Assembly: GCA_026397015.1 (NCBI GenBank)
Contig: JAPLVR010000003.1
Coordinates: 224,001-288,000, forward strand
DNA length: 64,000 bases
Origin: Candidatus Iainarchaeum sp.
Lineage (GTDB): Archaea; Iainarchaeota; Iainarchaeia; Iainarchaeales; JAAZKV01
Direction of reading: 5' to 3'
Of this stretch, positions 16,861-61,094 are shown one piece after another. The notes under the pieces are model-generated. The model saw only the letters and a list, made by a program, of their open reading frames with translations. It did no database searches and was not told where the DNA came from. Each line of letters opens with the position of its first letter. The first letter of the stretch is position 1. Both the position numbers and the translations under genes were made by a program.

Positions 16861-16890
16861 TTTTCACCAGCCTTTTTCGCAAAAAGGCTG
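16861..16890 (+). repeat. REP-like palindromic repeat copy
   Basis: TTTTCACCAGCCTTTTTCGCAAAAAGGCTG; 10-bp perfect stem immediately after the rpoA2 stop. Confidence 0.85.
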
Positions 16891-16934
16891 ATTTAAAAAC
16901 GTTAATGAAAGGGATTGTATAGTAATTGTTTTGC

Positions 16935-17010
16935 CTTGGGAAGCGGAAAGCGCGGAGTAAGGCGGTTAAAGAGTTAACTGCTTTTAATCCAGTGCTCCTC
17001 GACCCAGGTT
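16935..17010 (+). promoter_or_regulatory. Putative structured 5' leader of rpl30e
   Basis: Nested helices CTTGGG/CCCAGG, GGAGTA/TGCTCC and AGGCGGTTAA/TTAACTGCTT; TATA-like TTTAAAAA at 16892-16899. Confidence 0.5.
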
Positions 17011-17039
17011 ATTGGTGGGCGGACAGAAAGTGATTTATC

Positions 17040-17336
17040 GTGGAAATAAACAAGGAAATCAGGCGTGCGGTTGACACCGGAAAGGTTTCATTCGGGCAGA
17101 GACAGTGCCTAAAAAACCTTGCGAGCGGAAAGGGCGAACTGGTAATAGTCAGCGAAAATCTCCCGCGCAACGAAAAAGAAAAAGTAGAGCATATGGCAAA
17201 AATTGAAAATAAAAAATTCTACGTATTCAGCGGAAACGGGCTGACGCTCGGAAGCATCTGCGGAAAACCATTCGTAGTTTCGACAATGCTCGTGCTCGAC
17301 GCTGGAAAAAGCAAGGTGCTTGAAGCCGTGCAGTAG
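17040..17336 (+). CDS. rpl30e: Ribosomal protein eL30
   Basis: AVDTGKVSFG, LGSICGKPFVVS, DAGKS. Confidence 0.96.
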   Translation: MEINKEIRRAVDTGKVSFGQRQCLKNLASGKGELVIVSENLPRNEKEKVEHMAKIENKKFYVFSGNGLTLGSICGKPFVVSTMLVLDAGKSKVLEAVQ

Positions 17337-17369
17337 AAACAAAACAACATAAAAAAAGCAGTGGGAACA

Positions 17370-17765
17370 ATGAAGCTTTCAATGGATGAAATTCGTTTGA
17401 TGAACGCGCTTGAAAAAATTTCGGGGGCTAACGCAAAGGACTGCCTCGTTTCAGACGGCATGGTTTCGTTTCTTGTAAACGAAAGGGATGTCGGGAAGGC
17501 GATTGGAAAGAAAGCCTCCAATGCCAGGGCACTCGAAGAAAGCGTCAAAAAAAGAATTGAAATAATCGGCTTTCAGGAAAATCCTGAAGAGATGGTGAAA
17601 AAGGCGCTCGAAATAGAAACGATAGGGGCAAGAAAGGACTCTGAGAAAATTGTAATAAGATTGGATTCGATGAACAAAAGAAAATTGCTCAAAAAAAGCG
17701 CAAAGCTGAAGAGGGTAAGGGAATTCATAAAAAGAAATTTTAACTTGAATTTAACGGTAAATTAA
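17370..17765 (+). CDS. nusA: Archaeal NusA (KH domains)
   Basis: AKDCL, GKAIGKK..N...LEE...KRIEII; conserved position between L30e and S12. Confidence 0.92.
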   Translation: MKLSMDEIRLMNALEKISGANAKDCLVSDGMVSFLVNERDVGKAIGKKASNARALEESVKKRIEIIGFQENPEEMVKKALEIETIGARKDSEKIVIRLDSMNKRKLLKKSAKLKRVREFIKRNFNLNLTVN

Positions 17766-17835
17766 GATAGGTTAAAATAGTATTGTTACAAGAGAAATTA
17801 TGAGGATAAGAGAGTAAAAATTACAAGTGATTTTA

Positions 17836-18267
17836 ATGGGAAGAGGGGAGTTCGCAGCACTGAGCCTCGAGAAAAAGAGGAAAAAGTGGAAGAGAAAGGA
17901 CGGAAGGCATGCCAGAAAAATGAAGGCAAAGAACCGCGAATTTGACGACCTGCTGGAAGGAGCGCCGCAGGGAAGAGGAATCGTATTAGAAAAAAGAGGG
18001 GTAACGGCAAAGCAGCCCCACTCCGGAATAAGAAAATGCGTAAGGGTTCAGCTCATTAAAAACGGAAAACAGTTGACCGCATTGGCGCCAAGAGACGGGG
18101 CAATAAAATTTATTGACGAACATGACGAAGTAACTGTAAGCGGACTGGGGGGAGCGCAAGGCGGGCCTTCAGGAGACCTTTGGGGGGTAAAGTACAAAGT
18201 AACGCACGTGAACGGAATAAGCCTCGAAATGCTTAGGACAGGAAGAAAGGAGAAAGTAAAAAGGTAA
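17836..18267 (+). CDS. rps12: Ribosomal protein uS12
   Basis: [35 protein letters not shown]; decoding-loop variants are described in findings. Confidence 0.97.
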
Positions 18268-18560
18268 AAGCAAAAAAACTAAAAAAAATCAAAATGAAAT
18301 TAAGATAAAAGTAAATTAAGAAGAGAAAAAGTAAAATAGAACAAGGTAAAAAAATTAAAATAAAAGTAAATTAAAAAAAGAAAAATTAAAATAGAATAAG
18401 GCAAAATAAAGTAAAAAAATTGAAACTTAAAAAAGGAAAAATAAAATAAGTCATAAAAAAACAAATCTGGAAAAAATGAAAAATAATAATTAAAAAAATA
18501 AAGCAAAAAAAAATGGAAAAAGCAAATCTGAAAAAAACATAATGAAAAATAATACTTGGA
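18268..18560 (+). repeat. A-rich low-complexity spacer built from degenerate tandem duplications
   Basis: 42 of 60 bases are A in 18361-18420. TAAAAGTAAATTAA and AAAATAGAA recur at a 55-bp period; CAAATCTG recurs at a 61-bp period. Confidence 0.8.
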
Positions 18561-18570
18561 ATGTGGTAAT

Positions 18571-19419
18571 ATGGGCGCGGAAAAAGAAGAAAAAAAAGAA
18601 AAACAGGCAAAGGAAAAAGAACCTTCGGCGAAACCGGTGAAAGAAATGAAACCAGAAGTTAAGGCTGAGGTTCAGAAAACTGCGCCGCAGGAACACAAAC
18701 TTAATGCAAAGACACCGCAGGAAAACAAACCACGTGCCGAGCATTTGGCGGAAAAACAGTTCGCCGTTAATCCGGCGCCGAAAATTTTGGTGCCACAGAG
18801 AAAAAATCTTTTCCCTGAAAACAAGGTTTTCAACAGATGGTCATTCAATGACGTCAGAATAACTGATTTGGGCTTGGCAAGATACATATGCCTCGATTCA
18901 ATGATTCTGCCGCATTCTTTCGGAAGAAAGACCGGCGGAAAATTCGGGAAATCAAAAATTAATCTCGTTGAGAGGCTGGTAAACAAAGTTATGCGCTCGG
19001 GCCAGGGAAAAAGAAAACTCAGCGGAAAATTTATCAGAGGAAGGGGAAGCTGCGGAAAAAAAATGCAGGCAATGAGAATAGTCGAGGGAGCTTTTGAAAT
19101 AGTTGAAAAGAAAACAGGAAAAAATCCTGTTCAGGTGCTTGTTACCGCTATTGAAAACACTGCTCCGAGAGAAGACGTTACAAGAATAAAGAGAGGAGGA
19201 GTTCCGTACACCGTTGCAGTAGATGTTTCGCCGCAGATAAGGCTCGATGAAGCACTAAAAAACATCGCACTGGCCGGATTTGGAAATTCTTTCAACAAAA
19301 AAGTGAGCGCTGCGGAAGCCCTTGCGGAAGAAATGGTTGCGGCTTCGACCAACGACACGAAAAGCAGCGCGGCAAAGAGAAGGGATGAAATCGAGAGAAT
19401 CGCGAAGGCCTCAAGATAA
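18571..19419 (+). CDS. rps7: Ribosomal protein uS7 with an N-terminal K/E/P-rich extension
   Basis: VFNRWS...V...DLGL..YI, NPVQVLV.AIEN.APRED, RDEIERIAKASR. Confidence 0.96.
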   Translation: MGAEKEEKKEKQAKEKEPSAKPVKEMKPEVKAEVQKTAPQEHKLNAKTPQENKPRAEHLAEKQFAVNPAPKILVPQRKNLFPENKVFNRWSFNDVRITDLGLARYICLDSMILPHSFGRKTGGKFGKSKINLVERLVNKVMRSGQGKRKLSGKFIRGRGSCGKKMQAMRIVEGAFEIVEKKTGKNPVQVLVTAIENTAPREDVTRIKRGGVPYTVAVDVSPQIRLDEALKNIALAGFGNSFNKKVSAAEALAEEMVAASTNDTKSSAAKRRDEIERIAKASR

Positions 19420-19456
19420 AAAAAAGTTCCCGATTATTTTATTTTTTGGTGGTACG

Positions 19457-21649
19457 GTGGGAAGACAGGAAGACATGGCTTTGCTTGTTGAGAAGCTGAT
19501 GAGCTCGAGGGAAAATATCAGGAACATCGGCACTGTCGCACACATCGACCACGGAAAAACAACGCTAAGTGACACGCTAATTGCTGCTGCAGGGCTAATT
19601 AACCCTGAACTTTCGGGAAAAGTCCAGCTGATGGATTACGAGGACCAGGAGCAGGACAGGGGAATAACTATAAATGCGGCGAACATTTCAATGGCTTTTG
19701 ATTATGATGGAAAGAAAAATCTGGTTAATTTGATTGACACACCAGGGCACGTGGATTTTACAGGAGAAGTTATAAGGGCGATGAGGGCGGTTGACGGTGT
19801 AATACTTGTGGTGGATGCAGTCGAGGGAGTGATGCCGCAGACGGAAACTGTGATAAGGCAGGCGCTGAGGGAATATGTGAAGCCGGTGCTGTTCATCAAC
19901 AAAGTGGACAGGATAATAAAAGAATTGAACGCGACGCAGGAACAGATGCAGGAAAAATTTGTAAAAGTAATTGCACAGGTAAACATGCTGATTGAGAGGA
20001 ACGCACCTGCGCAATTTAAAGAAAAATGGAAAGTTAGGATAGAGGACGGCTCTGTTTCCTTCGGTTCGGCTAAGAGAAAGTGGGGGGTTTCGGTTCCTTA
20101 CATAAAAAAGACCGGAATAACGTTGAAGGATACTTATAATTATTTGAGGGAGGACAAGCAGGATGAGCTTGCAAAAAAGAGCCCTGTGAGCGAAGTGGTT
20201 CTGCAAATGGTTGTGGACCACCTTCCGAGCCCAATAGAAGCGCAGAAATACAGGATACAAAAAATATGGGGAGGCGATAGGGAAACAGAAGTTGGTAAGG
20301 CAATGGAATCATGCGACCCGAACGGACCGCTTTCAATGGTTATTACTGATGTGAGCGTTGACCCTCACGCGGGGGATGTTGCAACCGGAAGGATTTATTC
20401 AGGAACAATAAAAAACGGGGGCTTGGTTGTGCTGACGGGCTCGAAGAAGGAAATAAAGATACAAAAAGTCGGAATCTTCATGAGCAACGATTTTTTGACA
20501 ATCTCGAAGGCGCAAGCGGGAAACATTGCGGCGCTCGTCGGAATAAAGGATATTTATGCTGGCGAAACGGTTTCAACCCATGAAATGAAGCCCTTTGAAA
20601 GTTTCATGAGCAGGGTTGAACCGGTAATGACGATCGCAATTGAAGCAAAAAATCCGAAGGACCTTCCGAAACTTATCGAAGTGCTGAGAAAACTGGCGAA
20701 AGAGGATCCCAACCTAAGAGCGACAATAAACCAGGAAACGGGCGAGCATCTTCTTTCAGGAATGGGAGAGCTTCACCTGGAAGTAAATGTTTACAGGATT
20801 ACGACTACGAACAAAGTTCCTGTTCAGACGTCTGCGCCGATTGTGGTTTATCACGAAGCGATTAATGGAACGAGCCAGACTCTTGAAACAAAGAGCCCGA
20901 ACAAGCACAACAAATTCAAGATGAGGGCGCTTCCGCTGGACAAAAAAATTTTTGACAATTTAATCGAAGCAAAAATCGAGGGAAAATTAAAATTGAAGCA
21001 CGCGGAAACGATTGCAAAACTGCAGGCGGCCGGCTTTGATACGGACACTTCGAAAAAGGTTTGGGCGATTAGTAACGGCTCTGTTTTGATTGATAGGTCA
21101 AGAGGGGTACAGGCGCTGCACGAAATAAGGGAACTTGTAATTGAAGGGTTCATGGACGCGATGGCGGAAGGGCCGCTGGCGAAAGAAAAGTGCCAGGGGG
21201 CAGTAATAGAACTCGAAGATGCAATACTTCACGAGGACTCAATTCACAGGGGACCGGCACAAGTATTGCCTGCAATTACACGCGGAATATTTGCAACAAT
21301 GCTGCAAGCTGGCGCGGTTCTCTTTGAACCGAAACAAATACTTTCAATTATGGTCCCTGAAAATTACATGGGCGCGGCTTCGCGAGAACTGGGGTCGAGA
21401 AGGGTGCAAATAACAGAAATGAGGACGGAAGGGGATTCGAGCGTTATTATTGGAAAGGCACCTGTGAAGGAATTGATTGGGTTCAGCAGCACAATGAGAA
21501 GCGCGACACAAGGAAGGGCCGTTTGGACGGCGGAGTATTACGGCTATGAAATGCTGCCGAAGGAATTGCAAGCAAGCACAATAAAAGAAATAAGAAAGAG
21601 AAAGGGAATGGACGAGGAAGTAAAGAGCTGGCAGTTCTTCGTCGACTAA
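19457..21649 (+). CDS. fusA: Elongation factor aEF-2
   Basis: AHIDHGKTT, RGITI, DTPGH, NKVD, diphthamide loop HEDSIHRGPAQ. GTG start after GGTGG. Confidence 0.97.
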   Translation: MGRQEDMALLVEKLMSSRENIRNIGTVAHIDHGKTTLSDTLIAAAGLINPELSGKVQLMDYEDQEQDRGITINAANISMAFDYDGKKNLVNLIDTPGHVDFTGEVIRAMRAVDGVILVVDAVEGVMPQTETVIRQALREYVKPVLFINKVDRIIKELNATQEQMQEKFVKVIAQVNMLIERNAPAQFKEKWKVRIEDGSVSFGSAKRKWGVSVPYIKKTGITLKDTYNYLREDKQDELAKKSPVSEVVLQMVVDHLPSPIEAQKYRIQKIWGGDRETEVGKAMESCDPNGPLSMVITDVSVDPHAGDVATGRIYSGTIKNGGLVVLTGSKKEIKIQKVGIFMSNDFLTISKAQAGNIAALVGIKDIYAGETVSTHEMKPFESFMSRVEPVMTIAIEAKNPKDLPKLIEVLRKLAKEDPNLRATINQETGEHLLSGMGELHLEVNVYRITTTNKVPVQTSAPIVVYHEAINGTSQTLETKSPNKHNKFKMRALPLDKKIFDNLIEAKIEGKLKLKHAETIAKLQAAGFDTDTSKKVWAISNGSVLIDRSRGVQALHEIRELVIEGFMDAMAEGPLAKEKCQGAVIELEDAILHEDSIHRGPAQVLPAITRGIFATMLQAGAVLFEPKQILSIMVPENYMGAASRELGSRRVQITEMRTEGDSSVIIGKAPVKELIGFSSTMRSATQGRAVWTAEYYGYEMLPKELQASTIKEIRKRKGMDEEVKSWQFFVD

Positions 21650-21678
21650 TTAAATCGAGTAGTAAAACATGGTTGAAA

Positions 21679-21825
21679 TTGCGAAGCGTGACAAAACAGT
21701 TGTTTTGCCACGGTCTTTTTTTCGAAAAAAGGGCACTCCTGCGAAGCAGACAGTTTTTCGCCAGCCTTTTTCGTAAAAAGGCTGATGTGAAGCATTTTTT
21801 CGCCGGCCTTTTGCTAAAAGGCCGG
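21679..21825 (+). repeat. Composite cluster of REP-like palindromes (BIME-like)
   Basis: GCGAAGC mini-hairpins (21681, 21741); hairpins GTGACAAAAC/GTTTTGCCAC and GTCTTTTTT/AAAAAAGGGC; TTTTTCGCCAGCCTTTTTCGTAAAAAGGCTG (21754-21784); TTTTTTCGCCGGCCTTTTGCTAAAAGGCCGG (21795-21825). Confidence 0.85.
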
Positions 21826-21937
21826 GGGCAAGTATTTAAAAGGTTTCTTTAAAGGAATAGTAATATAGTTTTGCTGCGCAACTGGTGGGCGCGGCCGCAA
21901 CGATAAAATTTGGAATTTTTATTCGGAGGAATGTAAG

Positions 21938-23206
21938 ATGGCTGAAAAAAGTCTGATGAACATAGTTTTTATTGGTCACGTGGACCATGGTAAATCCACT
22001 TTAATCGGAAGATTGCTTTATGACGGTGGAGCTCTTTCAGAACAGGAATACAGAAAATTGGAAGCGGAAGCGAAGGAAAGGGGAAAGGGAACATTCGCCT
22101 TTGCATACGCAATGGACAAACTGAAAGAAGAAAGAGAAAGGGGAGTAACAATTGACGTTTCATACAGGAAGTTCGAGGCGAAGAAAAACACTTTCACAAT
22201 AATTGACGCGCCCGGACACAGGGACTTCGTAAAGAACATGATAACGGGAACTTCACAGGCGGATGCTGCAGTATTGGTAGTCGCCGCAAAAGAAGGCGTT
22301 CAGCCGCAGACAAAGGAGCACGCGTTCCTCGCCCAGGTAATGGGGATAAAACAATTAGTCGTTGTAATAAACAAAATGGACGAAGTGAATTATGAAGAGG
22401 CAAAATTCAACACTGTAAGCGCCGAAGTGGTAAAATTGCTGACAGGCGTTGGATACAAAGCTGATAACCTGAAAGTTGTTCCGGTTTCGGCTTGGAAAGG
22501 AGACAATGTAGTAAAAGCTACTAATAATCTAAAATGGTTCAAGGGAAAAACACTTTTGGATACGCTTGATGATTTGAAGGCGCCTCCATCACCGACAGAC
22601 AAACCGTTGAGGCTGCCGATACAGGACGTTTACAATATAAAAGGAATTGGAGCGATTCCTGTTGGAAGAATTGAAACCGGAATAATGAAGCCCGGCGACC
22701 AAATAATAGTAATGCCTTCGAAGAAAACCGGGGAAGTGAAAACAATCGAAGAGCATCACGAACAGCTGAGCCAGGGAGGTCCGGGAAACAACGTCGGTTT
22801 CAGCGTAAGAGGATTGAGCAAGGATGACTTGAACAGGGGAGATGTTGTTGGGCCGGTAAGCAAACCGCCGACGGTTGCAAAATCGTTCATCGGGCAGATA
22901 GTTGTGTTGAATCACCCTACTGCAATACCTGTGAATTACACGCCAGTGTTCCATGTCCATACTGCACAGATGTCAATGAGACTTGCTGAACTGCAGAAGA
23001 AACTGGACCCTAAAACGGGCGCTGTTGTGGAACTGAATCCAAAGTTCCTGAAAACCGGCGATGCGGCAATCGTAAAGATTGTTCCGTCAAAGCCGCTCTG
23101 TATTGAAAAATACTCTGAGTTCCCTCAATTGGGAAGGTTCGCAATCAGGGATATGGGTCAAACTGTTGCGGCGGGAATCGTTCTTGACATTGAAAAGGCG
23201 GAATAA
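21938..23206 (+). CDS. tuf: Elongation factor aEF-1A
   Basis: [43 protein letters not shown]; GGAGG SD; TATTTAAA promoter-like motif at 21833. Confidence 0.98.
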
Positions 23207-23293
23207 TCCCGTAGGGATTTTCGCAGGCCTTTGAAAAAGCTGGCAAAAGTTTTTCGCGAAAGTTTTTCGCCAGCCTTTTTCGCAAAAAGGCTG
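23205..23293 (+). repeat. REP-like palindrome cluster
   Basis: AATCCC/GGGATT hairpin, a degenerate copy at 23218-23249, and TTTTTCGCCAGCCTTTTTCGCAAAAAGGCTG at 23263-23293. Confidence 0.85.
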
Positions 23294-23360
23294 TGGGGGA
23301 GAGAGTTTTTTCTTTCTTCCAGCCATTGTTTTTATTTCAAATGGAAAGTAGGCGACAAAG

Positions 23361-23666
23361 ATGCAGACAGCACGAATAAAGCTTTCGAGCACTAATTACG
23401 GAACGCTGGAAGAAATTTGCAACAAAATAATAGATGTCGCCGAAAGAACCGGGGCAAAACACTCCGGAAAAATTCCTTTGCCGACAAAAAAATTAATTGT
23501 TCCCACTAGAAAGGGGCCTTCCGGCGGAGGAACTGAAAGTTATGAACACTGGCAGATGAGGATACACAAAAGGATGATTGACATACAAGCGGATGAAAGA
23601 ACTTTGAAAAGAGTAATGAGAGTTGAGATACCTGAAGATGTCCATCTTGAAATTGAATTGAAATAA
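23361..23666 (+). CDS. rps10: Ribosomal protein uS10
   Basis: ARIKLSST, GKIPLPTKKL.VPTRK.P.G.G, MRIHKR.IDI. Confidence 0.97.
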   Translation: MQTARIKLSSTNYGTLEEICNKIIDVAERTGAKHSGKIPLPTKKLIVPTRKGPSGGGTESYEHWQMRIHKRMIDIQADERTLKRVMRVEIPEDVHLEIELK

Positions 23667-23703
23667 GCTTTCTTTTTTTAATTGATTCGTGCCTAATTCG
23701 TCT

Positions 23704-24126: not shown

Positions 24127-24151
24127 AAAAATGGTTGAAAAAGTGAAAAAA

Positions 24152-49194: not shown

Positions 49195-49692
49195 ATGGCT
49201 GAACTAAAGTACATAGTAAGATTGATTGGAAAAGATTTGGATGGGACAAAGGCCGTTGAAAATGGAGTTTGCGGAATAAAGGGGGTAGGCAAAAGAATGG
49301 GAATGATAATAAGCGGCCAATTCAAAAAAGAAAACGGAATAAAGGGAATGAAAAAACTCGGAGAGCTTAACGACGAGGAAATAAAGAAGCTTGAAGATGT
49401 AATTACAAACCCTGCAAAGCACGACATCCCCGGATGGGCGCTTAACAGGCAAAAGGATTTTGAAAGCGGAGAAACCATGCATAAAACAATGAACGAACTG
49501 GATTTCGGGCTGAGAACAGATTTGCAGAGGCTCGCGGAAATAAAATCCTACAGAGGGCTTAGGCACATGTGGGGGCTTACTGTAAGAGGGCAGAAAACGA
49601 GAAGCACCCACAGAGGAAAAGGCGGCGTTGTCGGAGTTGTAAAGAAAGATGTTAAAAAAGCCGGCGGCGGAGCAAAAGAGGAAAAAAAATAA
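49195..49692 (+). CDS. rps13: Ribosomal protein uS13
   Basis: IVRL.G.DLDG, P.W.LNR.KD, SYRGLRH..GL.VRGQ.TRS. Confidence 0.97.
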   Translation: MAELKYIVRLIGKDLDGTKAVENGVCGIKGVGKRMGMIISGQFKKENGIKGMKKLGELNDEEIKKLEDVITNPAKHDIPGWALNRQKDFESGETMHKTMNELDFGLRTDLQRLAEIKSYRGLRHMWGLTVRGQKTRSTHRGKGGVVGVVKKDVKKAGGGAKEEKK

Positions 49693-50801: not shown

Positions 50802-50823
50802 ATTTGAAAAACTGGTGAAAAAA

Positions 50824-51613: not shown

Positions 51614-51829
51614 GCAGGGGTTCCCGAGCGGTCAAAGGGGCAGGACTTAAGCAGCCTTTTTAAAAAAAAGGCTGGCGAAAAAAAGCTAGCGCGGCAGCCT
51701 TTTAAAAAAAAGGTCGTGATGAATTAAACTCATCACGCTTCGCAAAAGCTTTGCTTTTGCTTAATGGAGAAAAGGTTTGAGTAATCCTGTGGCTTAGTGC
51801 CTTCAAGAGTTCGAATCTCTTCCCCTGCA
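51614..51829 (+). tRNA. tRNA-Leu(UAA) with a 132-nt intron at position 37/38 (intron 51652-51783)
   Basis: Acceptor GCAGGGG/CCCCTGC + A; D-arm; anticodon arm CAGGA-CT-TAA-G|A-TCCTG; long variable arm; AAGAG-TTCGAAT-CTCTT T-arm. Canonical BHB: CTTA/TGAG central helix, AG|C and TA|A bulges, outer helix AGCCTTTT/AAAAGGTT. Usual position after rpoD. Confidence 0.95.
51652..51745 (-). repeat. Inverted composite REP-like element inside the tRNA-Leu intron
   Basis: Reverse complement reads TTGCGAAGCGTGA...TCACGACCTTTTTTTTAAAAGG...TTTTTTTCGCCAGCCTTTTTTTTAAAAAGGCTG, collinear with 21679-21784. Confidence 0.8.
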
Positions 51830-53530: not shown

Positions 53531-53548
53531 GGAAAAACGTGAAAATGC

Positions 53549-54355
53549 ATGAAAAGAAAAACGGAAGAAGCGATTGAAAAGGAAAATTTGCGAAGGCGCG
53601 AGAGGGCAAAGGCGGAAGCAAATGCCAACCCCGACGGGGAAGAAGCGATTAAAGAAGTGGATGAGGTGATCGTTGGAACGGCAAGCAATCTGTTGGCAGA
53701 AACAGAAAAATATTTGAAGAGCGGAGTTCACATAGGCACGAAATTCAAAAGCGATGAGATGAAGAGGTACATAAGGAAAAAAAGAAGCGACGGCCTGATG
53801 ATGTTTGACATCGAAACAATCGATAAGAGAATAAGAATGGTTGGAAAAATACTTGCAAAGTACAGGGGAGAAGAAATTGCAGTTGTTTCAAGAAGGCTTT
53901 ACGGGCACAAAGCGCTGAAAAAGTTTGCCGCGATGACGGGCGCAAAAATATTCATTTCAAGGTTCATTCCGGGCACATTTACCAATCCGAATTCACGCGG
54001 ATTCTTTGAACCGAAAATAATTATGGTTTGCGACCCGATGAGCGATTTCCAGGCGGTAAAGGAAGCTGCTTCAATAAGAATCCCTATAATAGCGATTGCA
54101 GGAAGCGAATCGCCGCTTAAAAATGTCGATTTGATAATAGCCGCAAACAACAAGGGAAGAAAATCTTTGGCATTAATATTCTACCTGATTACACGGGAAA
54201 TCCTGGCCGAGAGGGGGGAAATTTCAAGAGAAAATTTTAAGGAAAAAATAGAGGATTTCGAGCAGGAAGTGGAGGAAAAAAAACTCGAAGAGGCCAAGAA
54301 AAAATTTACAACAAGGCGCTTCAGCAGGGGCGGCTTTAGGCGCCAAAACCGATAA
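53549..54355 (+). CDS. rps2: Ribosomal protein uS2
   Basis: YLKSGVHIGTK, RFIPGTFTNP, NNKGRKSLA. Confidence 0.97.
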   Translation: MKRKTEEAIEKENLRRRERAKAEANANPDGEEAIKEVDEVIVGTASNLLAETEKYLKSGVHIGTKFKSDEMKRYIRKKRSDGLMMFDIETIDKRIRMVGKILAKYRGEEIAVVSRRLYGHKALKKFAAMTGAKIFISRFIPGTFTNPNSRGFFEPKIIMVCDPMSDFQAVKEAASIRIPIIAIAGSESPLKNVDLIIAANNKGRKSLALIFYLITREILAERGEISRENFKEKIEDFEQEVEEKKLEEAKKKFTTRRFSRGGFRRQNR

Positions 54356-54416
54356 AAGAAGTGGTTAAAACCGCTTTAAATCACTCTTTAACATGCCCAA
54401 ATTGTTTGTGAAGGAA

Positions 54417-54466
54417 TACTACCGAGAGTAAGTTTATAAACCAATTAAGCTCCCTATATATAGGGA
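54417..54466 (+). promoter_or_regulatory. Promoter of the TrmB-family gene with two palindromes
   Basis: TACT-N6-AGTA (54417-54430), TTTATAAA TATA box (54433-54440), perfect 16-bp palindrome TCCCTATATATAGGGA (54451-54466). Confidence 0.6.
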
Positions 54467-54488
54467 ATAAGTGAATACAGTGGGCGAT

Positions 54489-55229
54489 ATGGGCGAAACT
54501 GATCCGAACACTCTGCTGGAGAAGCTCGGGCTTACGGAATACGAGGCAAGGACTGTAAGCACGCTATTCAAGCTTAAGGAAGCGGAAGCGCCGGCTATTT
54601 CAAGAAGCGCACAGGTTCCAAAAACCAGGGTTTACGATGTCTTGGAAAAACTTATTGAAAGAAATATTATAATCGAAATAAAGGGCAGGCCAAAACTTTA
54701 CAGAATCATTGAACCGGAAAAAGCAATCGATTCGCTGATAACTGCAAAAAAGGAACAATTGAGAGAACTTGAAAAAGACGCCGTTTCCTTGAAAGAAAGC
54801 ATCATTACCTATCCGGACAAAGACGAATTCGGGGAAAAAATGATGAAGGTCAAGGACAAACAGGACTTCGAAAAAATATTGGGGCAGGAACTTTCAAAAG
54901 CGAACAAAACCATACAAGGACTTACGGAAATCACTGATGACCACGACATAATATACGAAGAGCTGGTGAAAGCGAAAAAAAGAAATGTTACAATAAAACT
55001 CTTGAACGCATACCAGTCAAAGAGGCTTAAGGACTGCTGTAAAGTCAGGCATCTTGAACACGGGCTTAATGCATTTATAATCGACGGAAAAAAAGTCGTG
55101 CTTGCAATTTCGGATTTCAAAAAGTCGAAGCCGGCGTACCATTTCACAATCCTGAACGACCATCAGCCGGTGGCAAACGCGCTCTCGCATTATTTCAACG
55201 CGCAATGGGAAAGCGGAAAAGAATACTGA
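54489..55229 (+). CDS. TrmB-family transcriptional regulator
   Basis: LGLTEYEA, IS..AQVPKTRVYDVL..L, GRP..Y; C-terminal PLD-like domain (IIDGK.V). Confidence 0.92.
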   Translation: MGETDPNTLLEKLGLTEYEARTVSTLFKLKEAEAPAISRSAQVPKTRVYDVLEKLIERNIIIEIKGRPKLYRIIEPEKAIDSLITAKKEQLRELEKDAVSLKESIITYPDKDEFGEKMMKVKDKQDFEKILGQELSKANKTIQGLTEITDDHDIIYEELVKAKKRNVTIKLLNAYQSKRLKDCCKVRHLEHGLNAFIIDGKKVVLAISDFKKSKPAYHFTILNDHQPVANALSHYFNAQWESGKEY

Positions 55230-55351
55230 TTTTCATTTCGACTTCCAAGCTCGCCGACACAAAAGAATAAAATAACTCCCCCACTTCCTTCTTTTAAGGG
55301 TACAAATCCCAATAACGCTTGGGCGCTGCAAACCCGGAAGCGGTGCGGAAG

Positions 55352-57019
55352 ATGGAAAAAGTAAGGGCAATGGCGCTGAAGTACGCCATCAAGAACGCCT
55401 ATTCCCATGGGGGAAAGGCGGATGTCGGCGCGGTAATAGGAAAAATGAAGGCGCTTTTCCCCGACCTTGATATTGCGAAAGCTATGCCTCACATAAGCGG
55501 AGCGGTGAAAGAGGCAAACGAAATGAAAAAAGAACAGCTCGAAAAAAAGTTTTTGGAGTTTGAAAAAGAAGGGTGGGAGCTAAAACACGTTGAAAAGGAA
55601 AAAACGCTTCCCGAATTAGAGTGGATCGGAAAAGAAAAATTGGTCACAAGGGTTGCGCCGAACCCGAGCGGAGCGATGCACCTCGGCCATGCAAGGCCGG
55701 CAATTCTAACGGATGAATATGTGAAAAAGTACGGCGGAAAATATATTCTCAGGTTTGATGACACCGACCCGAAAATAAAGGTGCCTGTCGCGGGAATCGA
55801 AAAAGAGTTTTTGGGGGAATTTAGGTGGCTGGGAATAAAAATTGATGAAACTGCGAATGCGTCCGACAACTTGAAAGAATATTACAATGTTGTCGAAGAG
55901 CTAATCAAAAAAGGAAAAGCCTATGTCTGTTTTTGCGAAGCTGAAGAATGGAGAAAACTAATCTCAAAATCAAAGGAATGCCCCTGCAGAAAAAAGGATG
56001 AAAAGGAACAGATGGAAGAATGGAAGAAAATGCTAACGCACGAAATCAAAGAAGGCGAAGCCGTTGTAAGGATAAAAACTGACTTGAAAAACAAGGACCC
56101 GAGCGTAAGGGACTGGTGGCTGGCAAAAGTTGTTGATGCGGTGGAGCATCCGAACAGGGAAGCCGCGAAAATGCACGTGTGGCCGAGCTACAACCTTGCA
56201 TCCTCGGTTGACGACCATCGGATGGAAATAAATTTCATAATAAGGGGGCAGGAGCACGCGCAAAATGAAACAAAACAACGCTACTTATACGAATACATGA
56301 AATGGAAGTATCCTCACGCGCTCTACCACGGGAAGCTCGCGAAGGTCGGGGACATGCTCTTGAGCAAGAGCAAAATAAGCGAACTGATGAAAAAAGGGAG
56401 CATCACTTCGGATGACGACCCGCGGCTGGCAACGCTAAAAGCGTTAAGGAGAAGGGGTTTTACCCCGCAGGCGATTAGGAAAATAATTGTTGATATGGGC
56501 GTGAATCCGAGCGAGGCGAAGGTTTCGATGGAAAACTTTGCGGCGGCAAACAAATCTGTGCTCGGGAATGTTGCAGAATTTCCTTTTTTTGAAGAAGCGG
56601 TTGAAGTAGAAGCGTATAACGTTGGGAACGGCGCAGGGGAATGCTACGGAGAAAAAATCGAATTTGAGGGGCCAATTGAAAAATTTTTGGTGGACAAAAA
56701 GGAACTGAAAAGGCACAAAGCCGGAGAAATTATCAGGTTCAAGAAGGCTTTCAATGTTAAGCTGGACGAGGTTTCGGAATATGGAGGAAAAGCAACATTC
56801 TCTTCCTACTCAAAAGCGGATGCGAATTATCCAATCGTTTCATGGCTTGAGAACCAGGTTGATGTTGAACTTTTAATGAGCGATGGAACTAAGAAAATGG
56901 GTTTCACTGCGCCGAGCATTTTGGAAGCGAGTGGAGTAATCCACTTTGAAGGCGTAGGGTACGCGAATATTGAAGCGAAATCGGAAGGAATGGTTAAGTG
57001 CGTTTTTAGTTACGAATAA
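55352..57019 (+). CDS. gltX: Glutamyl-tRNA synthetase (archaeal type)
   Basis: R.APNPSG..HLGH, LRFDDTDP, P.YN....DDH, IRG.EH, LSKS, DDPRL.TL....RRG. Confidence 0.96.
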   Translation: MEKVRAMALKYAIKNAYSHGGKADVGAVIGKMKALFPDLDIAKAMPHISGAVKEANEMKKEQLEKKFLEFEKEGWELKHVEKEKTLPELEWIGKEKLVTRVAPNPSGAMHLGHARPAILTDEYVKKYGGKYILRFDDTDPKIKVPVAGIEKEFLGEFRWLGIKIDETANASDNLKEYYNVVEELIKKGKAYVCFCEAEEWRKLISKSKECPCRKKDEKEQMEEWKKMLTHEIKEGEAVVRIKTDLKNKDPSVRDWWLAKVVDAVEHPNREAAKMHVWPSYNLASSVDDHRMEINFIIRGQEHAQNETKQRYLYEYMKWKYPHALYHGKLAKVGDMLLSKSKISELMKKGSITSDDDPRLATLKALRRRGFTPQAIRKIIVDMGVNPSEAKVSMENFAAANKSVLGNVAEFPFFEEAVEVEAYNVGNGAGECYGEKIEFEGPIEKFLVDKKELKRHKAGEIIRFKKAFNVKLDEVSEYGGKATFSSYSKADANYPIVSWLENQVDVELLMSDGTKKMGFTAPSILEASGVIHFEGVGYANIEAKSEGMVKCVFSYE

Positions 57020-57135
57020 TAAAAATATCTCAGAGTTTTTTGAACAGGGAATATAAAACTGCACAAATTTAATTAAAGTTTAAAAAATTTTTTCAAATAG
57101 AATATTCTAAATCCATAAATCGGTGTGAATAATAA

Positions 57136-57558
57136 ATGCAAACCGCCTATAAAGTACACAAATTAATTAATCGCGAACGGAAAAAGCGTGGTTTGCATCA
57201 TTTGCAATGGGATAGGAGGCTTGCAAAATTAGCCTTCAGACAAGCCAAATATTGTTCCAAAGTTCATCGGCTAGTACATTCTAAACGCTATGCTTTTCAG
57301 GGGGGAGAGAATCTAGCACTGGGCGGGAGACATTTTAATCCAAAGGCCATTGTAACTTGTTGGATGCATAGTAAAGCTGGCCATAGAGAGTATCTATTAA
57401 GTCCTCGAGCAACAAAGGCTGGCGTGGGAGTAGTAAAATCCCGCAAAAAGACGTATGTAGCATGGGCGTTTAGTGATGAATTCACTATCGAGTCCTTACA
57501 CATTCCAAGAAAAATTAGAAAACTAATTCAGGGATTCGCAACTTTTCTTAATAGATAA
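57136..57558 (+). CDS. CAP (SCP/PR-1) domain protein, probably acquired horizontally
   Basis: IN.ER...GL..L.WD..L...A, H, GENLA, WM.S.AGHR..LL, GVG; AT-richer codon choice than its neighbours. Confidence 0.88.
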   Translation: MQTAYKVHKLINRERKKRGLHHLQWDRRLAKLAFRQAKYCSKVHRLVHSKRYAFQGGENLALGGRHFNPKAIVTCWMHSKAGHREYLLSPRATKAGVGVVKSRKKTYVAWAFSDEFTIESLHIPRKIRKLIQGFATFLNR

Positions 57559-57634
57559 ATAATAAAAAAACTCTTTTTTTGGAACAGGTGCTCCGCTTTT
57601 TAAAACTTTCTGGGGCAAGGGTTTACTGCAGAAT

Positions 57635-57770
57635 GGCTAGTTTCTGCCAATGAAACTGATGTCAAAGCAGTTGATTGTGCCGAACGAATGTGAGGCAAGC
57701 TGTATCGAGCCCAAAGGCGAAGATACTGCCCGCATGTCAACTGGGCGCGACAGTTGAAGTGGAGGTGTTT
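57635..57770 (+). promoter_or_regulatory. Structured 5' UTR of rpl7ae with candidate kink-turn/K-loop motifs
   Basis: TTTTTAAA TATA at ~57597-57604; TGCC-GAAC-GA-ATGT-GA-GGCA (57678-57697); GTATC-GA-GCC-CAAA-GGC-GAA-GATAC (57702-57726); GGAGGTG SD. Confidence 0.6.
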
Positions 57771-57772
57771 TA

Positions 57773-58132
57773 ATGGCGGGATATGTAAAGGTTGAGCTTA
57801 CAGCGGAGCTTAAAAAAGAAGTCGCTGACCTTTTGGACAAATCAAAGAAGGGAAAAATAAAAGCGGGAATCAACGAAGTGACTAAGGCAATTGAGAGGGG
57901 TAACGCGAAATTCGTGGTAATAGCGGAGGACGTAAGCCCTGCGGAAATAGTAATGCACTTGCCTTTGCTTTGCAACGAAAAGCAGGTTCCGTGCGCGTAC
58001 ATTGCAACCAAGAAAGAACTCGGAGAAAAATCGGGCATGAATGTGCCGACTTCTTCAGTTGCGATAATAAAATCGCCTGTTGAAAAGGAGCTCCAGAATC
58101 TTGGAAGCAAAATCGCGGAGCTGAAGAAGTAA
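57773..58132 (+). CDS. rpl7ae: Ribosomal protein eL8 (L7Ae)
   Basis: G.NEVTKAIERG.AK.VVIAEDV.P.EIV.HLPLLC.EK. Confidence 0.97.
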   Translation: MAGYVKVELTAELKKEVADLLDKSKKGKIKAGINEVTKAIERGNAKFVVIAEDVSPAEIVMHLPLLCNEKQVPCAYIATKKELGEKSGMNVPTSSVAIIKSPVEKELQNLGSKIAELKK

Positions 58133-58155
58133 ACTTTGCGGAAGGGGAATAAAAA

Positions 58156-58362
58156 ATGGAAGATGAAAGGGGAACTCCTGCAGAGGTAGTTGAAATAGTA
58201 AAGAGAACCGGCGTTCACGGAGAGGTAACGCAGCTTCTGTGCAAAATACTTGAGGGACCGGAACAGGGAAGGGTAAAACGAAGGAACATCAAGGGGTTGG
58301 TGCAGAAGGGCGACATATTAATCCTGCTGAACACGGAAAGGGAAGCAAAAGAAATCAAGTAG
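58156..58362 (+). CDS. rps28e: Ribosomal protein eS28
   Basis: PAEV.EI..RTG..GEVTQ, RN.KG.V..GDIL.L..TEREA. Confidence 0.96.
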
Positions 58363-58371
58363 GTGATATGA

Positions 58372-58620
58372 ATGGTGAAATGCGCATTTTGCGGCGAGGA
58401 TTTGCCGCTCGGCGGGGGAAAAATGTACGTCAAAAAAGAAGGGGCGGTTTTTTACTTCTGCTCGAGCAAGTGCGAAAAAAACCAAATCGGCTTGGGAAGA
58501 AAACCTGCAAAAACCGATTGGACGGAAGAGCACTACAAGTTGAAAAAAATTTCCGCACCTGAAAGAAAGCAGGCAAAGGAAGAAGGCGGCGGGAAAAAAA
58601 AAGATGAAAATGTTGTCTGA
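58372..58620 (+). CDS. rpl24e: Ribosomal protein eL24
   Basis: C.FCG...G.GKMYV, FCSSKCEKN, R.P....WT. Confidence 0.96.
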   Translation: MVKCAFCGEDLPLGGGKMYVKKEGAVFYFCSSKCEKNQIGLGRKPAKTDWTEEHYKLKKISAPERKQAKEEGGGKKKDENVV

Positions 58621-58740
58621 ATCCGGAAATTTTTTTCAAATAAAAAATTAAAAAATCGCCTAAAAAGAAGCGATAAGAAAAATGAAAAGCGGTGAAAGGA
58701 AATAGCTGTGAGAGTAATTGCAAAAACGGTTGTGATTGAA

Positions 58741-60504
58741 ATGATAAGGCAGCCGATAATAACTGTGTTGGGTCATGTCGACCATGGAAAAACGAGCCTC
58801 CTTGACGCGATAAGGAACACGGCGGTGGCTTCGAGGGAGGCGGGGGCGATAACGCAACACATAGGCGCAACGGAAGTTCCATTAAAGGCAATAATGAAAA
58901 CTGCCGGTCCGCTCATAAAAAAATTTGGATTCGATTTGAAAATTCCGGGGCTGCTTTTTGTAGATACCCCGGGGCACGAGGCATTTACAAACCTGCGAAA
59001 ACGCGGAGGAAAAATTGCGGATTTGGCGGTACTAACGATTGATGCCACGCAGGGGCTGCAGAAACAAACAATCGAAGCAATCGAAATTCTGCGGGAATAC
59101 AAGGTTCCTTTCATAATTGCGATGAACAAAATCGATTTGCTGAATTTTTATTCCTCAAAAGAAGGAAGTTTTTTGGAAAATTTTTCAACCCAAAACGAGA
59201 ACACGAAAAAACTTATGGAAGAAAAGCTTTACACCCTCGTCGGACAACTGTACAAGCACGGGTTCGAGGGCGAAAGGTTCGACAGGTGCGAATTCGGAAA
59301 ACAAATACCAATCGTGCCGTGTTCGGCGGAAACAAAGGAAGGGATTCCTGAAATCCTGACTCTGCTTGCCGGGCTTTCACAAAAGTATTTGGCAAAACAG
59401 CTGGAAATAAGCGAAGGTGAGAGGGGAGAGGCGGCGGTGCTGGAAGAGAAAGAAGAGAAGGGGCTTGGAAAAACAATCGATGTTATTCTTTACAAGGGAA
59501 CGCTAAGCGTGAATGACCCGATTGCTGTTGTAGGAAAAAACGGGGTAATTGAAACCAAGATAAGGGCACTGCTGCAGCCAAAACCGTTGCAGGAAATAAG
59601 GAACACTAACGAAAAATTTAACTCCGTGAAAAAGGTTTTCGCCGCAACAGGGGTAAAAATTGCCGCGCCAAATCTTGAAGGAATTGTTGCTGGAACAACG
59701 CTTCTTGTCGAGGCGACTGGAAACGAAAAACGGGAACTGGAAAACGAAATGGAAAGCATAAAGATTGATTCCACGAACAAGGGAATAATTTTAAAGGCGG
59801 ACGCGATAGGGTCTCTTGAAGCGCTCATCGGGCTTTTGAAAAAAGAGGGAATACCGATAAGAAAAGCCGATATCGGAAATGTAAACAGAAAAGATGTGAT
59901 GGAAGCGTCGTCTCTTTTGGAAGAAGAAAAAACGCTTGCATGCATTCTGGCTTTCAATGTCGAAGTGGAAAAAGAAGCCGGAAAAGAAGCGGAAAAAAAT
60001 GGGGTTCAGCTTTTCGATGAGAAGGTGATTTACAAACTTTTGGATGATTACAAGGAATGGTCCGAGAAAACGAAACGCGCTGCAAAGGAGCAAAAGCTTT
60101 CCTGCCTAGTGATGCCCGTTGAGTTCGAAGTGCTGCGCGGAAACATTTTCAGGAACACGAAGCCGGCAATCGTCGGAGTAAAAATTCTTGGCGGAAAACT
60201 GCGCGAAGGCTGGAAGGTCATGAACAAAGAGGGAAAAATAATCGGCAAGGTAGAAGGAATGCAAAAAAATTCAAAAAGCGTAAAGGAAGGAGCCAAGGGG
60301 GATGAGATAGCGGTGTCAATAAGAGGCGCCAATGTCGGAAGAAATCTTTTCGAAGGCGACCACCTATTCTCATGCATACCTGAAAGCCATTACTGTGAAT
60401 TGCAGTGCTGCCTGGAAGATCTTTCGGAAGAGGAAAAATCCCTGCTTGAAAAAATAAAAGAAAAACAATTAAACTTAGGACAAAATAAGGAGGAAGCAGC
60501 ATGA
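58741..60504 (+). CDS. infB: Translation initiation factor aIF5B (IF-2)
   Basis: IRQPI..VLGHVDHGKTSLLD, EAGAITQHIGA, DTPGHEAF.NLR.RGG, NKID. No intein. Confidence 0.97.
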   Translation: MIRQPIITVLGHVDHGKTSLLDAIRNTAVASREAGAITQHIGATEVPLKAIMKTAGPLIKKFGFDLKIPGLLFVDTPGHEAFTNLRKRGGKIADLAVLTIDATQGLQKQTIEAIEILREYKVPFIIAMNKIDLLNFYSSKEGSFLENFSTQNENTKKLMEEKLYTLVGQLYKHGFEGERFDRCEFGKQIPIVPCSAETKEGIPEILTLLAGLSQKYLAKQLEISEGERGEAAVLEEKEEKGLGKTIDVILYKGTLSVNDPIAVVGKNGVIETKIRALLQPKPLQEIRNTNEKFNSVKKVFAATGVKIAAPNLEGIVAGTTLLVEATGNEKRELENEMESIKIDSTNKGIILKADAIGSLEALIGLLKKEGIPIRKADIGNVNRKDVMEASSLLEEEKTLACILAFNVEVEKEAGKEAEKNGVQLFDEKVIYKLLDDYKEWSEKTKRAAKEQKLSCLVMPVEFEVLRGNIFRNTKPAIVGVKILGGKLREGWKVMNKEGKIIGKVEGMQKNSKSVKEGAKGDEIAVSIRGANVGRNLFEGDHLFSCIPESHYCELQCCLEDLSEEEKSLLEKIKEKQLNLGQNKEEAA

Positions 60505-60977
60505 AATTCGTTGTAAGCGAGCCAAAAACGAGAAAGGCATACAGCATGAACTCGGACAAAATAACTTTTGCCGGAAAAAAAATCGGCGAAGTGATAAAAT
60601 TGGACGAGGTCGGGCTGCCCGGCTATGAAGGAAAAATAACCGGCGGAAGCGACAAACAGGGATTCCCGATGAACAAATCCGTTCAAGGGGCCATGAGAAA
60701 AAAAATATTCACAGGAAACGGAGTAGGCTTCAATGCCGAAAGAAAAGGCGAGCGAAAAAGGGTTTCAGTGAGGGGCAACACAGTAAGCGAAGAAACTGCA
60801 CAGGTAAATCTAGTGGTGACAAAAGTTGGCTCTGTTGAACTGGACAAAATTCTGGCAAAGGGCGCTCCAAAAGAAGAGGATACACTAACTGCAAAAGAAA
60901 GGGCTGTAAAAACAAGCCTCGAAATGGCCGGCAGTGCTGAACTCGGAGCCGCACCGAAAAAAACAGGCAGGCACTAA
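60501..60977 (+). CDS. rps6e: Ribosomal protein eS6
   Basis: GKKIG, ITGGSDK.GFPM, GERKR..VRGN. Confidence 0.96.
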   Translation: MKFVVSEPKTRKAYSMNSDKITFAGKKIGEVIKLDEVGLPGYEGKITGGSDKQGFPMNKSVQGAMRKKIFTGNGVGFNAERKGERKRVSVRGNTVSEETAQVNLVVTKVGSVELDKILAKGAPKEEDTLTAKERAVKTSLEMAGSAELGAAPKKTGRH

Positions 60978-61008
60978 AAATAGTTCGAAAGAATTTGGGT
61001 TTGTTTTC

Positions 61009-61094
61009 GCGCTTCAGCGCTTGAAAACGGAAGCCAGGAGGCTTCATCCGTCGCCTAAGGCGACGGTTTTCGCCGGCCTTTTGTCAAAAGGCCG
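61009..61094 (+). repeat. Hairpin array ending in a REP-like copy, directly before the aIF2gamma SD
   Basis: GCGCT/AGCGC, GAAGCC/GGCTTC and CCGTCGCC/GGCGACGG hairpins, then TTTTCGCCGGCCTTTTGTCAAAAGGCCG (61067-61094). Confidence 0.8.

Follow-up and report, generated by a model that had tools for sequence, protein, structure and literature searches.

The window (the whole 64,000-nucleotide stretch of Candidatus Iainarchaeum DNA analysed here) contains short tagged palindromes beside rpoA''-L30e, in the EF-2/EF-1a, EF-1a/S10 and S6e/aIF2-gamma spacers, and in the intron of a tRNA-Leu(UAA) gene. All of the copies listed in an earlier note on this DNA were found at their places. The copies and the related features are as follows:

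16861..16890, plus strand: full copy directly after the rpoA'' stop codon, with the tag variant TTTTCAC and its hairpin at 16868-16890
16890-16901: TATA-like box of L30e, following the 16861 copy
21688..21711, plus strand: variant hairpin GTGACAAAAC-N4-GTTTTGCCAC, another module of the same repeat system
21711..21736, plus strand: degenerate copy with a weak fold (z +0.40)
21739..21749, plus strand: small GC hairpin CTGC-GAA-GCAG, ahead of the tag of the next copy
21754..21784, plus strand: full copy in the EF-2/EF-1a spacer
21796..21825, plus strand: full copy with a CGGCC/GGCCG stem; next comes the TATA-like box of EF-1a (21832-21843)
23207..23243, plus strand: small hairpin (23207-23217) directly after the EF-1a stop, then a degenerate copy (23218-23243)
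23263..23293, plus strand: full copy in the EF-1a/S10 spacer
51614..51829, plus strand: unannotated tRNA-Leu(UAA), split at 37/38 by a 132-nt intron into exons 51614-51651 and 51784-51829
51652..51682, minus strand: full copy antisense to tRNA-Leu(UAA), its hairpin at the first intron bases and flush with the 5' splice site
51695..51716, minus strand: second, degenerate copy in the same tRNA-Leu(UAA) intron (z -0.97)
57704..57756, plus strand: related leader cassette in the 5' leader of L7Ae (gene 57773-58132)
61048..61094, plus strand: full copy (61067-61094) in the S6e/aIF2-gamma spacer, preceded by a GC hairpin (61048-61066)

The repeat is composed of a single-stranded tag (T4-7CGC) and then a 9-11 bp hairpin of the form CRGCC-T(3-8)-loop-A(3-8)-GGCYG. 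The pattern TTTTCRCCRGCCTTT with at most one mismatch has eight matches in the window against 0.27 expected, and none of 100 shuffles reached eight. Seven of these matches are the sites of the earlier note; the eighth (49248-49262, minus strand, one mismatch) has no palindrome and was dropped. The six full copies, at 16861, 21754, 21796, 23263 and 61067 on the plus strand and at 51652-51682 on the minus strand, form 9-10 bp hairpins with a 3-nt loop and leave the tag unpaired, with folding energies of -11.7 to -16 kcal/mol and z-scores of -2.1 to -4.4. The degenerate copies at about 21711, 23218 and 51695 fold weakly (z -0.97 to +0.86). The proposed stem covariation holds well beyond the window: in this genome (G000) and its congener (G001), 54 copies carry CAGCC/GGCTG and 20 carry CGGCC/GGCCG, with only 3 mixed at that pair, and several double stem changes (for example, CAACC/GGTTG) were also found. 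The one-sided tag, the covarying palindrome and the free loops describe a genome-wide family. GCGAAGC showed no enrichment, since this heptamer occurs 14 times in the window against 12.0 expected, and genome-wide 23 of 194 occurrences are intergenic while intergenic DNA makes up 12.3% of the genome. The Rfam search of the window gave no match at the gathering threshold. In a set of 20 archaeal loci, nothing but tRNAs scored at or above a family's gathering threshold, and in 20 further loci, of which 18 are bacterial and 2 archaeal, that score was reached only by a tRNA adjoining an archaeal copy.

Several of the window sites could be compared with the congener. Its rpoA''-L30e site has the TATA-like box and no repeat copy, and its EF-2/EF-1a spacer lacks the entire repeat cluster and holds a different gene. 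The ortholog of the 23263 copy differs from it in the loop, with tag and stem identical; at S6e/aIF2-gamma the congener also keeps a copy, in which the T/A runs are longer and the closing pair is G-T. The TATA-like boxes reported after the copies at 16861 and 21796, and the Shine-Dalgarno sequence reported after the copy at 61067 (GAGGTG, then ATG at 61105), are all present. The L30e and EF-1a boxes stand at the same places in the congener without an upstream repeat copy, and relatives have a matching box ahead of EF-1a. On the explanation favoured below, the copies in the rpo, EF and S6e spacers are ordinary family members, not operon-specific regulators. Other modules recur as well: the GTGACAAAAC-N4-GTTTTGCCAC hairpin also stands ahead of copies on contig C2. 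The 57704 cassette consists of a covarying stem with an apical GAGC..GCGAA and then a hairpin CAACTG..CAGTTG; a cassette of this type precedes about 14 tRNAs in this genome, and the leader cassette is also located in the 16S-tRNA-Ala spacer.

The tRNA-Leu(UAA) gene was missed by ARAGORN at default settings and by Rfam at the gathering threshold, and was also unseen in the earlier note. In-silico removal of the 132 nt gave a recognised tRNA-Leu(taa). In the predicted minimum-free-energy fold, bases of the anticodon loop pair with the 3' end of the intron, and a 3-nt bulge is present on the 3' side only. The two copies previously described as inverted, at 51652 and about 51695, do exist; their setting, however, is this tRNA intron.

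About 43 tagged copies are found in the 898,628 bp genome, none within a credible coding frame; exact matches to the 15-mer number 39 in this genome and 56 in its congener (reversed control, 0). Nearly half of the copies in the two genomes (45/95) abut tRNA exons, where they precede the 5' end, follow the 3' end or open a long intron. Of the 44 copies in this genome, 8 run up to the 5' end of a tRNA, 7 begin at the 3' end of one, 4 lie at the start of an intron and 25 are elsewhere; the corresponding numbers for the 51 copies in 657 kb of the congener are 8, 12, 6 and 25. All 45 tRNA-abutting copies have the hairpin toward the exon and the tag away from it, and the opposite orientation was never seen. 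The same tRNA-boundary contexts were observed in four distant genomes of the order. Moreover, one copy with a T7 run separates a candidate 16S processing stem from the 16S 5' end; the congener has retained this copy. Among the spacers bounded by protein genes only, copies occupy 9/399 tandem, 3/131 convergent and 0/127 divergent ones; all 12 occupied spacers include a gene 3' end, and both orientations relative to the protein genes occur. Multi-copy clusters are direct tandems on the same strand, and the sole inverted pair brackets tRNA-Ser(CGA). The association with highly expressed operons drawn in the earlier note is incomplete, the strongest association being with tRNA and rRNA exon boundaries. 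The niche of the family appears to be transcribed DNA that is discarded or untranslated, namely tRNA leaders and trailers, long putative bulge-helix-bulge (BHB) introns, the 16S leader and spacers that include a gene 3' end.

The family is neither confined to the sites first listed nor invariant among relatives, so that the outcome named in the earlier note as refuting a mobile family did not arise. In collinear spacers of the two genomes the copy is kept at 10 of 12 and missing at 2, and no target-site duplication of the kind that MITEs leave was noted at the orthologous sites compared. Across nine orthologous pairs, identity is 45/45 positions in the tag, 79/90 in the stems and 7/24 in the loops; three orthologous sites switch stem type on both arms. 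The flanking genes are only 68-87% identical in most of the compared spacers, and up to 96% identical beside the rRNA locus. The exact 15-mer was found in 66 of 215 genomes sampled from the phylum, all of them in one order and spread over many of its families, and 149 genomes have no exact copy. Bursts of 15-56 copies adjoin congeners with 0-1. Patchy copy number, presence that differs at orthologous sites and new introns made from copies are the behaviour of a proliferating repeat, as had been proposed.

The new introns are found in the congener. The tRNA-Asp gene has no intron in 11 of 16 genomes, among them this one and the more distant relatives; in the congener it has a 105-nt intron consisting of two copies. 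Similarly, tRNA-Thr(GGU) is unbroken across 37/38 in 7 of 11 relatives and split in the congener. Both intron-bearing genes align with the intronless genes of this genome, and both introns are made of these copies. The introns of other relatives also open with a hairpin, which is unrelated to the repeat. The congener also carries, 49 nt ahead of its tRNA-Asp gene, a 15-nt duplicate of that gene's 5' end, which a repeat copy directly abuts; the flush hairpin before tRNA-Asp itself is absent in most relatives.

The same tag and palindrome are also multicopy in some gut Clostridia, and the term "archaeal analogue" is therefore too narrow. For example, 5 of the 11 copies in one Clostridia isolate lie 2-30 nt after the end of a co-oriented ORF.

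Genes for a mobilising enzyme were also searched. PF01797 was not found in eight motif-bearing genomes of the order, namely this genome, the congener, G005, G020, G036, G039, G166 and G182 (83-99% complete, with 5-56 copies each). In this genome and the congener, none of four families (Y1_Tnp, TnpB-type, Cas1 and DDE_Tnp_1) was found. Y1 transposases are present in three other genomes of the order (G188, G107 and G165); none of the four Y1 loci examined is flanked by the motif, and Y1 is absent in three of five motif-rich Clostridia. As a separate observation, tyrosine recombinase genes adjoin two repeat-carrying tRNAs.

With middling confidence, these palindromes are best explained as a short, non-autonomous, proliferating hairpin repeat of transcribed but discarded or untranslated DNA. 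Copies would survive only where they fold on themselves and leave together with the spacer. Within introns, the hairpin starts 1-3 nt past the 5' splice site and might serve as an outer helix beside the splice bulge; in leaders and trailers it might prevent base pairing between the tRNA and the RNA beside it. Behind protein genes, a copy would act at most as a 3' hairpin or a weak oligo-U stop. The invariant tag may be the handle for whatever factor copies or recognises the element. Several findings weigh against this explanation. No mobilising enzyme was found in this genome or the congener, and no target-site duplication was noted at the compared orthologous sites. The orthologous copies are intact, with an unchanged tag, despite the divergence of the flanking genes, which is not how a purely selfish, decaying repeat would behave; this points to host-factor selection or ongoing conversion. 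The uniform polarity at tRNA exons is likewise not explained by tolerance alone, and the occurrence in Clostridia suggests a sequence-specific role or carrier.

A bolder extension of this explanation is speculative, and we consider it rather unlikely. The tagged hairpin of about 30 nt might act as a minute mobile element, or as a site recognised by a cross-domain factor, that targets the borders of structured-RNA genes and provides raw material for new archaeal tRNA introns, with the same element working in one DPANN order and in gut Clostridia. If true, this would imply cross-domain spread, or a universally conserved enzyme that has so far not been linked to repeats.

The strongest alternative is a host RNA signal, which remains a lesser but real possibility. 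The tag and hairpin would be bound by a conserved protein, such as an Sm-like or a decay or processing factor, that flags leaders, trailers, introns and 3' UTRs to be trimmed, degraded or protected, and the signal would have spread via its usefulness alone. The invariant tag with compensatory stem changes and drifting loops is consistent with such a signal, and so are the exact 15-mer kept across the families of the order and the Clostridia copies soon after stop codons. Moreover, in 45/45 copies the cut site is next to the hairpin, on the side opposite the tag, and a single-stranded U-run is placed between two hairpins, an arrangement which we take to resemble an Sm/Hfq-type site. However, the signal would be dispensable, because most of the sampled genomes have no exact copy and the congeners of burst genomes have at most one. 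The congener does without a copy at the rpoA''-L30e site, most relatives do without the flush hairpin before tRNA-Asp, and RNase P RNA is present, so that ordinary leader removal is available.

The copies are improbable as ordinary archaeal oligo-T terminators, made bidirectional by the T-run/A-run palindrome and standing at the ends of transcription units. T4-7 runs occur once or twice in each copy, the small GC hairpins with the T-run tag behind them have the look of intrinsic terminators, and copies follow tRNA 3' ends where other tRNAs carry a plain T-run; the gene 3' end in every occupied protein-only spacer, with divergent spacers empty, also fits. However, polymerase must read through the T7 copy in the 16S leader, which lies inside the candidate processing stem, and 16 copies stand flush before tRNA 5' ends and 10 at intron starts. 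The two orientations relative to protein genes and the variation of copies among relatives also argue against termination. As to transcript 3' ends at the T-runs, the RNA runs found contained just 6-8% of the sampled words.

A REP/BIME element mobilised by a RAYT (HUH/Y1) transposase, as proposed in the earlier note, is very unlikely. The one-sided tag and palindrome, the extragenic and multicopy distribution, the lineage-specific bursts and the Y1 transposases elsewhere in the order are all in its favour; whereas PF01797 was not found in the eight motif-bearing genomes searched, none of the four Y1 loci examined is flanked by the motif, three of five motif-rich Clostridia lack Y1, and the clusters are direct tandems rather than inverted pairs. 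Equally doubtful are promoter-like DNA palindromes whose T/A core or T-run tag would be bound by TBP/TFB at tRNA and translation genes: the lineage's TATA-like boxes read (C)CTTTTAAAAGG, close to loop-less copies, the tag T-run lies about 23-33 bp before the tRNA +1 in flush copies and the centre of one reversed copy is about 27 bp ahead of tRNA-Gly(CCC), but the spacing to +1 varies by about 9 bp with extra rather than fewer bases in longer hairpins, tRNA-3' and intron copies would drive antisense transcription into the tRNA, the L30e and EF-1a boxes lie downstream of copies and persist in the congener without them, and arms and loops of variable length with kept complementarity fit a hairpin rather than a fixed dimer site.

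The proliferating hairpin repeat shares several properties with the RAYT-associated REP, BIME and REPIN elements, which are also short, extragenic, tagged and multicopy palindromes with covarying stems, often lie past gene 3' ends and have lineage-specific copy numbers. However, no Y1/RAYT gene was found in the copy-rich genomes here, and the copies form direct tandems instead of inverted doublets. About half of them lie flush with the boundary of a tRNA exon, in a strictly kept polarity, and some make up tRNA introns; to our knowledge, no REP does either. In Neurospora mitochondrial DNA, GC-rich palindromes flank tRNA genes and could mark processing sites. They resemble the present family as a repeated palindrome directly beside tRNA genes; whereas they belong to another domain of life, are unrelated in sequence and have no intron role.

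Two further systems also involve tRNA genes. In the integration-linked model of tRNA gene disruption, as presented in PMC3293823, the element is 1.8 kb and carries a recombinase. Both systems feature intron gain, and stray pieces of tRNA close to tRNA genes (here, the 15-nt tRNA-Asp fragment of the congener), although the inserts here are 50-130 nt and gene-less. Intron "transposition" in the tRNA genes of Thermoproteales (Fujishima et al. 2010, as described in PMC4090602) also resembles the present case: near-identical sequences occur in the introns of different tRNAs, gain followed the split of species, and the mechanism is not known. As far as that description goes, the difference is that the shared 30-nt module here forms the 5' part of an intron whose remainder differs between introns, and that it also occurs in leaders, trailers, the 16S leader and mRNA spacers.

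The palindromes listed in the earlier note were all found at their places in the window, and they belong to a real repeat family. Each copy is a unit of ~30 nt, composed of a single-stranded tag (T4-7CGC) and a covarying CRGCC/GGCYG hairpin. The sequence TTTTCRCCRGCCTTT, with no more than one mismatch, occurs 8 times in the window against 0.27 expected. Folding of the full copies gives a hairpin of 9-10 bp that has a triloop and leaves the tag unpaired; the three copies regarded as degenerate fold poorly. The GCGAAGC mini-hairpin present in the clusters shows no enrichment. The repeat matches no Rfam family. The two inverted copies are also present, but they are situated at the start of a tRNA intron, in a gene overlooked both by ARAGORN at its defaults and by Rfam at the gathering threshold. 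This tRNA-Leu is an example of the tRNA genes that such repeats hide from annotation. The features of the window are as follows.

51614-51829: tRNA-Leu(UAA), located between rpoD and L18e; intron of 132 nt
Transcription and translation genes by Pfam: rpoB'/B''/A'/A'', L30e, NusA, S12, S7, EF-2, EF-1a, S10
Further genes by Pfam: archease, RtcB
Further genes by Pfam: rpoD, L18e, L13, aIF5B, S6e, aIF2-gamma

Immediately 5' of S10 (window 23295-23320) is another hairpin, with the pattern GGGRnnGGA-T5-7-TCCnnYCC and a T-rich loop, which most of the relatives examined share; it does not belong to the repeat family.

The source genome is an archaeal assembly of 898,628 bp in six contigs (42% G+C), in which the window spans C5:224001-288000, and a profile search of it detected 43 tagged copies in 32 clusters. 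ARAGORN, with introns allowed, predicted 37 tRNAs, and an intron of 17-148 nt was called in 13 of them (58-148 nt in 12). The tRNA contexts were counted with one relaxed pattern in this genome and in 657 kb of a congener (G001). Of the 44 copies in the source genome, 8 finish 0-3 nt upstream of a tRNA 5' end, 7 begin 0-3 nt downstream of a 3' end, 4 stand in antisense at the opening of a tRNA intron, and the remaining 25 are in other places. The congener has 51 copies (8 before 5' ends, 12 after 3' ends, 6 opening introns and 25 elsewhere). All 45 tRNA-abutting copies of the two genomes are oriented alike, with the hairpin next to the exon and the tag on the far side, and the leader, trailer and intron contexts recur in four distantly related genomes of the same order. 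The niche of the family is discarded RNA beside exon borders. So strict a polarity suggests that the copies either insert by a mechanism targeting the borders of RNA genes or act in processing; for prokaryotic repeats, either one would be new. Behind the copies that follow tRNA-Ile(UAU) in the source genome, a unit of ~24 nt ending in GGCGAAAA is repeated three times in tandem and is followed by shorter GGCGAAAA repeats (C3:18486-18640).

The copies turn over between the relatives. Of 12 collinear spacers, 10 contain a copy in the congener; the two without one are rpoA''-L30e and EF-2/EF-1a. In nine orthologous pairs the tag is identical at 45/45 positions, the stems at 79/90 and the loops at 7/24, and the stem type is switched on both arms at three orthologous sites. 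The flanking genes share 68-87% identity for most spacers compared, rising to 96% at most next to the rRNA locus. Of the 215 genomes sampled from the phylum, 66 contain the exact 15-mer of the motif, and these all belong to one order (reversed control, 0); within this sample, bursts of 56, 39, 22, 20 and 15 copies adjoin congeners with 0-1.

Some tRNA introns are built from these copies. The tRNA-Asp gene has no intron in 11 of 16 genomes, including the source genome and more distant relatives; the congener has a 105-nt intron consisting of two copies, and four genomes of another genus have unrelated introns of 79-84 nt. Similarly, tRNA-Thr(GGU) is unbroken in 7 of 11 relatives, and in the congener it has an intron of 110 nt made up of copies. 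One review (PMC4090602) calls the mechanism by which archaeal tRNA genes acquire introns unknown, and a 2026 preprint on Asgard archaea states that intron arrival "remains open". Here, sister species differ by introns made of extragenic repeat copies, with distant relatives representing the intronless state; this difference supplies a concrete donor sequence together with testable filled and empty sites.

Duplicates of tRNA ends were considered as insertion footprints and rejected; only 1/37 and 3/36 tRNAs had a duplicate that was not due to a neighbouring tRNA gene. Both tRNA-Gln genes of the congener are followed by an insert of 57-58 nt (C2:87235-87307 and C3:22328-22402; also locus L016). 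The insert begins with TTTTCGC and a hairpin, ends on 15 nt that repeat the tRNA 3' end, and has the look of a short inserted element with a long duplicated target; a distant genome has a comparable duplicate of the tRNA-Gln 3' end. A second intron family occurs in tRNA-Thr(CGU), tRNA-Tyr and tRNA-Glu(UUC) of the source genome (C2:5062-5227, C5:191849-192022 and C6:28304-28483); its introns have a purine tract behind a polypyrimidine/polypurine hairpin (CCCTTTTCTTTT..AAAGAAAAG).

The hairpin is also one module of a larger system, since a cassette of 60-70 nt precedes ~14 tRNAs. In the cassette, a small hairpin is followed by an 8-bp stem that covaries and bears GAGC-N3-5-GCGAA at its apex; a short linker then leads to the terminal hairpin, which abuts tRNA +1 and is either the family palindrome or of a CAACTG..CAGTTG type. 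Since TATA-like boxes are situated 5' of the cassettes, the leaders of these tRNAs are probably long and structured; the genome contains an RNase P RNA. The letters GAGC..GCGAA seemed to us reminiscent of a known k-turn. The cassette was not assigned as one, because the covarying stem imposes a register that leaves no 3-nt bulge. An antisense variant copy (AAACC..GGTTT plus tag; C6:77066-77094) is located within the RNase P RNA gene (C6:76951-77220) and may have been inserted into a peripheral helix. The L7Ae gene (window 57773-58132) has a long leader with elements at 57646-57661 and 57704-57756. Of 23 genomes examined, 11, the source genome among them, have a box C/D-like ATGA-N3-CTGA element 5' of L7Ae; it may be the self-regulating k-turn known from other archaea. 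A tRNA-type cassette lies between this element and the SD of L7Ae in the source genome and in two other genera.

The earlier note had placed the family in the spacers of highly expressed operons and considered termination among its roles. The copies occupy 9/399 tandem, 3/131 convergent and 0/127 divergent protein-gene spacers, in both orientations relative to the genes. Their protein neighbours are mixed (EamA transporter, Alba, Fic, adenylate kinase, KaiC and giant surface proteins), and therefore the family is no mark of highly expressed operons. The rRNA locus bears on termination.

C6:40006-41489: 16S gene

Reading by eye revealed an 11-bp complement ~167 nt before the 16S 5' end and 45 nt after the 3' end, which looks like a processing stem and has both strands retained in the congener. 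Inside this candidate stem, ~100 nt 5' of the 16S, is a copy with a T7 run, likewise retained in the congener. The polymerase must thus pass this copy, as it must the leader and intron copies, and the required passage argues against efficient termination. A search for sequencing runs turned up two RNA runs, in which just 6-8% of the sampled sequence words were present. Wobble pairs were tried as an indicator of the folding strand and set aside, with only three mixed closing pairs (two G-T read tag-first and one A-C), too few for a decision. A triple helix was rejected on inspection because the strands are out of register: CGC alone separates the T-run of the tag from the hairpin base, and the A-T pairs begin five pairs up.

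When one genome per species was scanned with the 25 fixed bases of the motif, at least 122 stretches matched; among the matches listed were archaeal MAGs, including some titled 'Candidatus Iainarchaeum', and many Clostridia. Five of these bacterial genomes contain 7-43 exact 15-mers each, of both stem types (control, 0). In a cultured Clostridium-class isolate (genome G215), each of the 11 copies examined begins a four-hairpin repeat of ~120 nt, and 5 of the 11 lie 2-30 nt past the end of a co-oriented ORF. This composite repeat is found at L281:1455-1610 and 10 further places; its first hairpin has a tag and stem identical to the archaeal motif, and its last has TTTTCGC/GCGAAAA arms. The identity of the motif across the two domains is unexpected. 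A cultured host permits experiments impossible in the uncultured DPANN archaea. As for carriers, a phage collection gave no match, and one match was in an Anaerotruncus plasmid.

A RAYT (Y1_Tnp, PF01797) had been proposed as the mobiliser. The search for Y1_Tnp found none in 8 motif-bearing genomes of the order; the domain is present in three other genomes of the order, and the motif flanks 0 of the 4 Y1 loci examined. Nor was a TnpB-type, Cas1 or DDE_Tnp_1 gene found in the source genome or the congener. A RAYT or one of these other transposases is disfavoured as the mobiliser in the genomes searched. Three tyrosine recombinases are encoded in the source genome, two of them beside tRNAs. The recombinase genes at C3:120396-120893 and C5:163309-163734 lie ~550-650 bp downstream of tRNA-Ser(GCU) and tRNA-Glu(CUC), each of which has a flush copy at its 5' end.

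Literature searches yielded no description of the motif or of hairpin repeats common to tRNA leaders, trailers and introns. Both the function of the family and the mechanism that copies it are inferred. It differs from the bacterial REP in having no link to a RAYT; in form, however, the two are alike.
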